From UHGV virus genome UHGV-0109010: a stretch of DNA of 41,638 nt; one strand, 5' to 3'. Position 1 is the first letter of the stretch; each line of letters begins with the position of its first letter. The stretch comes from a virus. A program made the position numbers and the translations under genes. Below are positions 9,964 to 13,332 of the stretch, one piece after another. Under the pieces are notes generated by a model. That model did no database searches and was not told where the DNA came from. It saw nothing but the letters and a program-made list of their open reading frames with translations.

Positions 9964-10296
9964 ATGAACCCTTATATTTATCTTGGTGGTGCAATACTTG
10001 CAGAGGTCATTGGTACAACCTTAATGAAGTTTTCAGAAGGTTTTACACGGTTATGGCCATCTGTTGGTACAATTATTTGTTATTGTGCATCATTCTGGTT
10101 ATTAGCTCAGACGCTGGCTTATATTCCTACAGGGATTGCTTATGCTATCTGGTCAGGAGTCGGTATTGTCCTGATTAGCTTACTGTCATGGGGACTTTTC
10201 GGCCAACGGCTGGACCTGCCAGCCATTATAGGCATGATGTTGATTTGTGCCGGTGTGTTGGTTATTAATTTATTGTCACGAAGCACACCACATTAA
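9964..10296 (+). CDS. emrE: SMR-family multidrug efflux transporter EmrE (110 aa from MNPYIYL...)
   Basis: Translation MNPYIYLGGAILAEVIGTTLMKFSEGFTRLWPSVGTIICYCASFWLLAQTLAYIPTGIAYAIWSGVGIV matches E. coli EmrE. Confidence 0.92.
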   Translation: MNPYIYLGGAILAEVIGTTLMKFSEGFTRLWPSVGTIICYCASFWLLAQTLAYIPTGIAYAIWSGVGIVLISLLSWGLFGQRLDLPAIIGMMLICAGVLVINLLSRSTPH

Positions 10297-10327
10297 AAAT
10301 AATTTGTTTCTAAACGACTAAAATATG

Positions 10328-10362
10328 GAGGCTCTTATATTTATATGAGCCTCGTTTTATGC
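10328..10362 (+). terminator. Rho-independent terminator after emrE
   Basis: GAGGCTC-loop-GAGCCTC stem followed by GTTTTATGCTTTTT. Confidence 0.55.
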
Positions 10363-10552
10363 TTTTTGTTAATGTCTTTATTTTTTTATGTATTCTTTTG
10401 TGCTTTCAAGATTATGGCGTAAGAAAATTGCAATACGATTATTGTTGTATATTCAAGATAATGTGACCTTAATTGTCTTTTTAAATAAAAATTAAACAAA
10501 AATTATATCCCACCACTAAGGTTTATAAAAGCATACGTTAGCAGGTGTCACC

Positions 10553-12079
10553 ATGAAAAAAGCCATAGCATATATGCGATTTTCATCACCAGGTCAGATG
10601 TCTGGCGACTCATTAAACCGACAGAGAAGACTTATTGCTGAATGGTTAAAGGTAAATAGTGATTATTATCTTGATACCATAACATATGAAGATTTAGGAT
10701 TAAGTGCATTCAAAGGAAAGCATGCACAATCAGGAGCTTTTTCGGAATTTTTAGATGCTATAGAGCATGGTTATATATTGCCAGGAACTACATTGTTAGT
10801 TGAAAGTCTGGACAGACTTTCAAGAGAAAAAGTCGGTGAAGCGATTGAACGTCTGAAATTGATTTTGAATCACGGTATTGATGTTATAACTCTTTGCGAC
10901 AATACAGTCTATAATATTGACTCTTTGAATGAGCCATATTCATTAATAAAAGCCATACTTATAGCACAAAGGGCAAATGAAGAAAGCGAGATAAAGTCAA
11001 GTCGGGTTAAATTATCATGGAAGAAAAAACGGCAGGATGCACTGGAATCAGGTACGATTATGACGGCGTCTTGTCCGAGATGGCTCTCCTTAGATGACAA
11101 AAGAACGGCTTTTGTTCCAGACCCCGACAGGGTGAAAACTATTGAGCTAATTTTTAAACTCAGGATGGAAAGGCGCTCATTGAATGCAATAGCCAAGTAT
11201 TTAAATGATCATGCTGTAAAGAATTTCTCAGGAAAAGAAAGTGCATGGGGACCTTCTGTAATTGAAAAATTATTAGCGAATAAAGCTCTGATAGGTATAT
11301 GCGTACCTTCATATCGTGCAAGAGGTAAAGGAATAAGTGAAATCGCTGGCTATTATCCCAGAGTCATATCAGATGATTTGTTTTACGCTGTACAGGAAAT
11401 TCGGTTGGCACCTTTTGGTATTAGCAATAGTAGCAAAAATCCTATGTTGATAAATCTACTTCGAACAGTTATGAAGTGCGAGGCTTGTGGTAATACCATG
11501 ATTGTTCATGCGGTATCTGGAAGTTTGCATGGCTATTATGTTTGTCCGATGAGAAGACTGCATCGATGTGACAGGCCATCAATAAAGAGAGATTTGGTTG
11601 ATTATAATATCATTAATGAGTTGCTTTTTAATTGTAGTAAAATCCAACCAGTTGAAAACAAGAAAGATGCTAATGAAACTTTAGAGTTGAAAATTATTGA
11701 GCTCCAGATGAAAATTAATAATTTAATTGCTGCATTATCTGTTGCGCCTGAAGTTACCGCTATAGCAGAAAAAATCAGAGTATTAGATAAGGAATTACGA
11801 AGGGCTTCTGTATCATTAAAAACTTTGAAGAGTAAAGCGGTGAGTTCACTTGGTGATTTTCATGCTATTGACTTAACCAGTAAAAATGGGCGAGAGCTAT
11901 GTCGTACACTTGCCTATAAAACATTCGAAAAAATCATAATCAATACAGATAATAAAACCTGTGATATCTATTTTATGAATGGCATTGTTTTTAAACACTA
12001 TCCTTTAATGAAAACAATATCCGCCCAGCAGGCGATAAGTACTCTCAAATATATGGTTGATGGTGAGGTTTATTTTTGA
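10553..12079 (+). CDS. ybcK: Large serine recombinase (resolvase domain + recombinase domain + zinc ribbon; YbcK-like, 508 aa)
   Basis: N-terminal resolvase-type motif (AIAYMRFSSPGQ...SLNRQ), Cys cluster CEACGN...CPMRRLHRC, C-terminal coiled coil; AT-rich codon usage; same position as ybcK in DLP12. Confidence 0.8.
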   Translation: MKKAIAYMRFSSPGQMSGDSLNRQRRLIAEWLKVNSDYYLDTITYEDLGLSAFKGKHAQSGAFSEFLDAIEHGYILPGTTLLVESLDRLSREKVGEAIERLKLILNHGIDVITLCDNTVYNIDSLNEPYSLIKAILIAQRANEESEIKSSRVKLSWKKKRQDALESGTIMTASCPRWLSLDDKRTAFVPDPDRVKTIELIFKLRMERRSLNAIAKYLNDHAVKNFSGKESAWGPSVIEKLLANKALIGICVPSYRARGKGISEIAGYYPRVISDDLFYAVQEIRLAPFGISNSSKNPMLINLLRTVMKCEACGNTMIVHAVSGSLHGYYVCPMRRLHRCDRPSIKRDLVDYNIINELLFNCSKIQPVENKKDANETLELKIIELQMKINNLIAALSVAPEVTAIAEKIRVLDKELRRASVSLKTLKSKAVSSLGDFHAIDLTSKNGRELCRTLAYKTFEKIIINTDNKTCDIYFMNGIVFKHYPLMKTISAQQAISTLKYMVDGEVYF

Positions 12080-12190
12080 GTAATAATCACTTTTTCAACC
12101 GTGCTATAGTAAGAAAGTTAGGTAAGTACAATAAAATTATCTATCCTGAACGAAGCGTCCTGAGCTATGGTTTTACTATAGAGACTGCCA

Positions 12191-12514
12191 ATGGATGCTG
12201 GCGTTCTCGTTCTAGCAGTTCAACAATACCCAATCACAAAACAATTCACTGATAACGAACTTTGCACACTCGCCTGGTTATGGCGAGCAGGGAATGTGAT
12301 GTTAATTACCTACCAGAACGTTACTCCTCTTCTTCAGGTTGCGGAGCATCGTGAAGCTGGTCGCTTCACTTCTATCGAGCAAGAATATCCCCAGATACTC
12401 AATAAGGCACAGGCAATCCTTGCCAGAGAAACGGCACATGTAAAATTCCGGCCGTGGCAGGATGATAAGTGGAGTCGAGTTTTGCCGCATTTACGTTCGG
12501 ATCGATTACAGTAG
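12191..12514 (+). CDS. Hypothetical protein (107 aa), unknown function
   Basis: ORF only; weak RBS; no recognisable family; may be a gene remnant. Confidence 0.3.
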   Translation: MDAGVLVLAVQQYPITKQFTDNELCTLAWLWRAGNVMLITYQNVTPLLQVAEHREAGRFTSIEQEYPQILNKAQAILARETAHVKFRPWQDDKWSRVLPHLRSDRLQ

Positions 12515-12975
12515 ATTCCAATTAACAATGAGAAACACATAGCCACCCCGTGGTATTGAAACCATATAATGTTGGATTTGAAAACAGATCTTTTTCCATG
12601 TATTAATAACTACATCCCCGCGAGTGATTCAAAAAGGAGGGCCCAATTTTGTCCGAGTTTTTGTATTCCCCCGCATGCCGCTGCGGAGCACTACATCTGA
12701 GTGTCTGACTAGGGGATAAAATTAGACTGGATAGTGAGAAGAAAGTGGCGTGCTAGGCTGTGCCGAGTGCTACCAGTACACCCTGGGGGTGTGCAGCTTT
12801 CGCCGAGACTGTAGTGGGTATCGGTTAATGCACGAAAAACCGAGAGGTCAGACAACCAATTTGCCGTAGGATTGTTTCCGGTGCGATACCGGTGTACTAA
12901 CTGAAAGCAATGCGAAAAAGCATAAACTCGGTCCTTCAGTCGCCCTACACACTATTTACTAAGAAGGGCTAAAGC
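12515..12975. ncRNA. Candidate structured non-coding region (GC-rich island with multiple short hairpins inside AT-rich cargo)
   Basis: No ORF of 60 aa or more; local GC visibly higher than flanks; hairpins such as ACACCC-TGG-GGGTGT and CCGG-TGCGATA-CCGG; no tRNA T-loop. Confidence 0.3.
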
Positions 12976-13332
12976 ATGGATACAATTATCACATGGATGG
13001 GAGATCGTCTGTTGGGGTGGATAACAAACAAATCCGATCTGCGGCAGAGGGCAATCACTGGATTAACTCCTGCGATTTATTCAACAATTTTATATACTGA
13101 AAAATTAAAACGTGGTGAGCCTAATAACCCAAACGAAGAAGAAAAACTTTATAGACTTTGGTATGAAGCGTCTTCCCAAGTCGTAGACTTTGATCGAGAG
13201 CTGGCTAAAAGATGTTTAGATAAATCAGAATATTGGCTTCATTCTGAATTATATAGCCCTGAGAAAGTTGGAGAGCTAAACATTTCTTTGGTTGGTATGA
13301 AGGCAACGCTTGAAGGAATAAAGCACAATTAA
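12976..13332 (+). CDS. Hypothetical protein (118 aa), unknown function
   Basis: ORF with purine-rich RBS (AAGAAGGG); AT-rich codon usage; no recognisable family. Confidence 0.45.
   Translation: MDTIITWMGDRLLGWITNKSDLRQRAITGLTPAIYSTILYTEKLKRGEPNNPNEEEKLYRLWYEASSQVVDFDRELAKRCLDKSEYWLHSELYSPEKVGELNISLVGMKATLEGIKHN

Follow-up and report, generated by a model that had tools for sequence, protein, structure and literature searches.

Genetic context of the element

The window analysed here, a 41,638-nt stretch of virus genome UHGV-0109010, is a DLP12-type lambdoid prophage of Escherichia coli integrated at tRNA-Arg(TCT). The gene order around the region of interest is O, P, emrE, ybcK (a large serine recombinase, 10553-12079), a 107-aa remnant of a P22-type antirepressor (12191-12514), an intergenic gap, a 118-aa ORF (12976-13332, + strand), and then ybcN/ninB, ninE, ybcO, rusA and Q. 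The 107-aa ORF contains only the C-terminal domain of the antirepressor, of which a full-length 249-aa version is present at the same place in another homologous locus, L092. The ybcK region (10200-12150) is markedly AT-rich (GC 0.31-0.41) compared with the rest of the prophage, suggesting separately acquired cargo.

A sequence-only reading had proposed a structured RNA in the interval 12515-12975, either as a leader of the 118-aa ORF or as an independent ncRNA, and our analyses support this interpretation, with the second option being better supported. No ORF of 60 aa or more lies inside 12547-12975 on either strand, the longest being 43 aa (+) and 48 aa (-). The GC content in 300-nt windows is 0.44-0.50 over the region, as compared with 0.32-0.40 for ybcK upstream and 0.36-0.40 for the 118-aa ORF downstream. 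The functional element is, however, narrower than that interval, with a predicted promoter at 12578-12607 and the RNA at 12614 to about 12944 (+ strand, about 331 nt), whereas bases 12515-12577 are not conserved outside the E. coli clade.

Distribution and conservation

Homologues of the element share 70-100% identity and always lie between the replication genes and ninB/DUF1367. The core (about 12598-12944) is present in 159 of 5,426 complete E. coli genomes, one copy each, and RefSeq annotates nothing there in any of the 159. It was also found in Escherichia phages Turner and IdasGreatGrand, and Klebsiella phages Kp4856-1 and Kp4862-1 at 78% identity; in about 70 IMG/VR contigs and 28 metagenome contigs; and, through searches with neighbouring proteins, in prophages of Obesumbacterium proteus, Enterobacter bugandensis and Citrobacter braakii. 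Identity to the window ranges from 100% down to about 71%, in roughly five clades, and further pattern scans of viral contigs returned the same set, with nothing below about 70% identity. Pattern scans of one genome per GTDB species gave only one chance hit, in Stenotrophomonas, and the element is absent from these reference genomes at that sensitivity. It is therefore an uncommon accessory feature of Enterobacterales prophages.

Decayed copies also exist, as expected of a dispensable accessory gene. For example, in L092 (5552-6808) and L069, a 1,255-bp IS3-family element, encoding a transposase with an rve domain, is inserted in the predicted -10 box (equivalent to window 12602-12605) with a 4-bp overlap of the flanks; L054 lacks everything 5' of about window position 12712; and L044 diverges after about 12915.

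Predicted fold of the RNA

Thermodynamic stability alone does not distinguish the element, since the MFE of the window sequence (-105 kcal/mol) is no better than that of shuffled sequences (-100.5 +/- 5.7, z = -0.79; z = -0.75 for the minus strand), and the case rests instead on comparison between sequences. RNAalifold on 25 sequences gave 84 pairs, 17 of them with compensatory change, and a scan for stacked covarying columns added two long-range helices, a 6-bp loop-loop kissing interaction and a pseudoknot of 7-9 bp. On 29 distinct sequences, the resulting 99-pair model had 97.1% of cells forming a standard pair, 26 pairs with change on both sides and a covariation score of 0.235, as compared with 32-44%, 3-8 pairs and about 0.05, respectively, when partners were slid by 1-3 columns; none of 500 column shuffles reached the observed values, and similar figures were obtained on 25 sequences. 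The sequences fall into about five clades, however, so that the number of independent substitution events is well below the cell counts. The model contains 290 G-U cells against 4 A-C cells, and the fold therefore works on the + strand (97.1% paired) and worse on the - strand (87.2%).

The 5' domain (12614-12717) is closed by P1 (12614-12619 with 12712-12717), which encloses the P2 and P3 hairpins; a covariance model of this domain scores 128 bits here and finds no second copy in the window. P2 (12620-12674) is a three-part hairpin of almost invariant sequence, carrying the Shine-Dalgarno-like AAAGGAGGG in and next to a GGA/GAG internal loop. Its apical 41 nt also match a site on Alteromonas mediterranea plasmid pAMDE1 (98825-98867; a 41-43 nt match, AAAAAGGAGGGCC..AUUUUGACCAAGUUUUUG, 86% identity, 29.5 bits with the 5'-domain model), in a 1.4-kb unannotated, partly GC-rich gap next to a tyrosine recombinase. 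The rest of the RNA is not similar, and this match could be a shared module or chance. P3 occupies 12679-12703. The 3' domain (12725-12941) is closed by P4 (12725-12730 with 12936-12941) and holds P5 (12741-12801), P6 (12776-12794), P7 (12802-12825), P8 (12839-12844 with 12927-12932), P9/P10 (12862-12909) and P11 (12910-12923), with P5, P6, P7 and P10 each having two to six pairs with compensatory changes.

The two domains are tied together by the two long-range helices. The kissing interaction pairs the P3 loop (12689-12694, CACUAC) with the P7 loop (12811-12816, GUAGUG); 98.9% of its cells are paired, and it occurs in four covarying combinations, CACUAC/GUAGUG, CGCAAC/GUUGCG, CACCAC/GUGGUG and CAUCAC/GUGAUG. 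The pseudoknot pairs 12704-12710 (UCUGACU) with 12846-12852 (GGUCAGA); 99.5% of its cells are paired, and C-G changes to U-A in four sequences of one clade.

Of the three hairpins named in the sequence-only reading, two are conserved helices with compensatory changes, ACACCC-TGG-GGGTGT (P6, 12776-12794) and CCGG-TGCGATA-CCGG (P10, 12878-12892), but the third, GCCGCTGCGGAGC, is not a local hairpin in the conserved fold, as those bases pair with 12696-12703 instead (P3). In addition, CCGAGUUUUUG in P2 (12653-12663) is 91% complementary to CAUAAACUCGG (12921-12931), which may represent an alternative conformer, although the same CUCGG pairs with 12839-12844 in P8, the helix with covariation support.

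Absence of coding potential and of known RNA families

Variable columns are spread evenly over the three codon phases (64, 57 and 51 of about 110 each), clades differ by 1- and 2-nt indels, no frame is open in all clades, and six-frame translations hit nothing in Pfam or PHROGs. The possibilities of a decayed pseudogene, a DNA-level site or chance hairpins, to which the neighbouring antirepressor remnant and the non-significant MFE might point, are contradicted by these results together with the strand-specific G-U pairing and the compensatory changes far above controls, and the conserved predicted promoter and terminator also argue against them; we consider such explanations highly improbable.

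A 19-codon sORF (12649-12708, + strand; MSEFLYSPACRCGALHLSV) has a UUG start 8 nt after AAGGAGG, raising the possibility of a small-protein mRNA or a dual-function RNA. The frame stays open for at least 12 codons in every clade, the first ten codons are nearly invariant, and a similar SD-UUG-ACC-AAG-UUU-UUG hairpin occurs on the Alteromonas plasmid. However, the invariance includes the wobble positions, and the few changes are mostly at first codon positions. One E. coli clade (L097) has an early stop, at codon 13, and the L073/L083 clade has a -1 frameshift, whereas codons 11-16 change non-synonymously while preserving the RNA pairs of P3 and the kissing loop. The start codon is partly paired, and part of the Shine-Dalgarno sequence is paired, in helix P2c, and about 230 nt of conserved, covarying structure lie outside the sORF. 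A peptide product is thus unlikely, but not excluded.

A search of Rfam 15 at gathering thresholds gave only tRNA-Arg at 875-948 in the whole window, and at E <= 10 with permissive filters the segment 12000-13500 gave only two chance snoRNA hits, both outside the element. Seven divergent homologues gave nothing over the element, and ARAGORN found only the tRNA-Arg, consistent with the failure of the sequence-only reading to match tRNA, tmRNA, RNase P or 6S motifs. Literature searches by sequence fragment, protein accession and topic found no description of the element.

Predicted promoter and terminators

A sigma-70-type promoter is predicted about 7 nt upstream of the RNA, with -35 TTGAAA (12578-12583), an 18-nt spacer and -10 ATTAAT (12602-12607) with TG at 12599-12600, from which a start site at about A12614 is inferred. 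In all 21 distinct non-E. coli contexts examined, a -35 hexamer (TTGAAA, TTGAAT, TTGTAT, TTGATA or TTGTAA), a 17-18 nt spacer of variable sequence and a -10 hexamer (TTTAAT, TTAAAT, TTGAAT or TATATA) end 5-6 nt before the first base of P1, although a simple consensus scan did not list the site in the window. A short direct repeat (TGGTATTGAAACCATAT / TGGATTTGAAAACAGAT, within 12551-12589) overlaps the -35 box in the window, and in other clades (upstream regions of L062, L158 and L160) a 7-bp inverted repeat (AACCATA-N5-TATGGTT) does the same; these could be an operator or the 3' hairpin of the upstream gene.

In 12 of the 21 non-E. coli contexts, P4 is followed within about 25 nt by a GC hairpin and a run of at least five, usually six to eight, T, so that the transcript is predicted to end at an intrinsic terminator, 10-20 nt after P4. 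No such terminator was detected in the loci carrying the 118-aa ORF (the E. coli clade included, although not in that tally), the 177-aa type, the 95-aa type or the most divergent clade, L083, in which a weak hairpin plus T-run (CCGCCTATTGACGG-T8), seen by eye, fell below the energy cut-off. Homology between RNA clades stops a few bases after P4, at about 12944, which marks the module boundary. The linker at 12945-12975 is homologous only among loci that carry the 118-aa ORF, and belongs to the ORF cassette rather than to the RNA family. In the window, the same predicted transcript would therefore continue into the 118-aa ORF.

Variable flanking genes

The gene upstream of the RNA may be a dATP/dGTP pyrophosphohydrolase, an unnamed 160-270 aa protein, a VasI-like secreted protein, the antirepressor remnant or a large membrane protein. 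The position just downstream behaves as a variable accessory-gene slot, of which the RNA marks the upstream edge, and holds the 118-aa protein, a 178-aa membrane protein, a 176-aa protein with an RHNLLH (HEPN-like Rx4H) motif, a 177-aa protein starting MKNIIIDSNAW (PIN-like by eye), 95-aa plus 162-aa proteins, or, in L053, no accessory ORF, with DUF1367 directly after the terminator. None of these proteins matches Pfam, NCBIfam or PADLOC. The 118-aa protein belongs to PHROG 12412; its AlphaFold2 model is a four-helix bundle (pLDDT 80) with no significant PDB match, and no conserved HEPN Rx4-6H motif was seen by eye. In E. coli sub-clades L100, L097 and L018, this ORF is cut to 60-66 aa, while the RNA upstream stays 96-97% identical and full length.

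All homologues of the 118-aa protein at 69% identity or more, and of the 176-aa protein at 64% or more, that we looked up have the RNA upstream, whereas homologues at 51% identity sit in prophages without it. The RNA and accessory gene thus travel together over short evolutionary distances but do not need each other, and an obligate partnership of the RNA with a swappable effector is not supported.

These arrangements bear on the main alternative, a cis-acting leader (a sensor, attenuator or processive-antitermination element) setting how much transcription reaches the accessory gene. The next ORF is always on the same strand and follows either directly (the 118-aa, 177-aa and 95-aa types), where the RNA is physically a 5' leader, or 25-40 nt after the terminator with no room for a separate promoter, so that some cis coupling of expression is likely. 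However, the downstream genes are unrelated to each other (at least five families, or none), the terminator and spacer sequences are not conserved, and no conserved alternative pairing between them and the RNA body was seen by inspection. A leader function is therefore possible but only tentatively entertained.

Possible function

The data may be best explained by an autonomous gene for a non-coding RNA of about 330 nt, carried as an accessory module by lambda-like prophages of Enterobacterales, which also supplies the promoter, and in this window the 5' leader, for whatever ORF sits in the adjacent slot. We hold this reading with moderate confidence; the start site, the 3' end and expression in the lysogen are inferred without transcript data. 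The two-domain, doubly clamped fold and the near-invariant junctions and P2 hairpin point to recognition of the three-dimensional shape, by a protein partner or by other copies of the RNA. So does the lack of detectable complementarity elsewhere: no other similar or complementary stretch was found in the 5,426 E. coli genomes at E <= 1, and complementary 12-mers in the prophage are near chance level (four against about 1.6 expected by our own estimate), of which the one inspected (in ybcN) is not conserved in Klebsiella, although short seeds cannot be excluded. Our guess, for which there is no direct support, is that the RNA acts by binding a protein or by self-assembly, rather than by antisense pairing or by regulating the next gene in cis. 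More speculatively, it may be the founding member of a new class of large, pseudoknotted phage RNA working through its three-dimensional fold, as a self-assembling RNA with an intermolecular kissing loop, a ribozyme, or a decoy or sponge for a host or rival-phage factor, and would then represent a conserved RNA component of the prophage's accessory arsenal.

The element is new at the level of RNA family, with no relative in Rfam 15 or in the searchable literature, although prophage-borne structured RNAs of unknown function have precedents. New RNAs with complex folds are rare, and few would be expected to remain unnoticed in E. coli and Klebsiella. Its presence in clinical and commensal strains and in cultured temperate phages (Turner, IdasGreatGrand and Kp4856-1) makes it a tractable enterobacterial model for asking what large structured phage RNAs do.

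Comparison with known systems

The order of promoter, structured RNA, intrinsic terminator and protein gene in several clades resembles what appears to be the layout of type III toxin-antitoxin loci (toxIN), and some downstream ORFs look toxin-like by eye (the RHNLLH motif, the PIN-like N-terminus, a membrane protein). However, no tandem repeat array was found in the RNA at a minimum score of 30, and no direct-repeat family lies inside it apart from one 8-mer pair. The protein partner is variable and dispensable, and the downstream proteins have no ToxN/AbiQ or any other Pfam or PADLOC match, making an RNA antitoxin very unlikely. Like the hok-type type I toxin mRNAs, the element is a folded RNA of several hundred nt with long-range pairing and a short ORF, but the 19-aa peptide is not hydrophobic and is not conserved beyond residue 10, and no antisense RNA gene is evident.

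With riboswitch or attenuator leaders and cis-acting antitermination RNAs (HK022 put and Bacillus EAR), which may serve as precedents for a leader function, the element shares a promoter-proximal folded RNA upstream of an ORF on the same strand and, as for put, a lambdoid phage context; it differs in its unrelated downstream genes, in having no conserved expression platform that we could see by inspection, and in being far larger than put, which is probably about 70 nt. The prophage-encoded regulatory sRNAs of E. coli and Salmonella (DicF, IpeX, IsrK, svsR and Pas sRNAs) are RNAs expressed from a lambdoid prophage accessory region, as is inferred for the element, which shares with them a predicted terminator-type 3' end in most relatives. 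Those are mostly 50-170 nt with simple hairpins, and several act by base pairing; svsR (PLoS Pathog 2026) is a different, 77-nt RNA at the 3' end of cI, whereas the present RNA is about 330 nt and predicted to be pseudoknotted.

ROOL and GOLLD, large ornate RNAs of phages and prophages, are also carried by prophages and have multi-helix folds with pseudoknots and covarying loop-loop pairs, with no known protein partner or function. In ROOL, a kissing loop first read as tertiary from covariation turned out to be intermolecular (PMC12286853), and the same ambiguity applies to 12689-12694 with 12811-12816. The element has no sequence or structure match to these families in the Rfam search, is about 330 nt rather than the more than 800 nt quoted for many GOLLD members (PMC12286853), and sits in the nin region rather than near tRNA islands.
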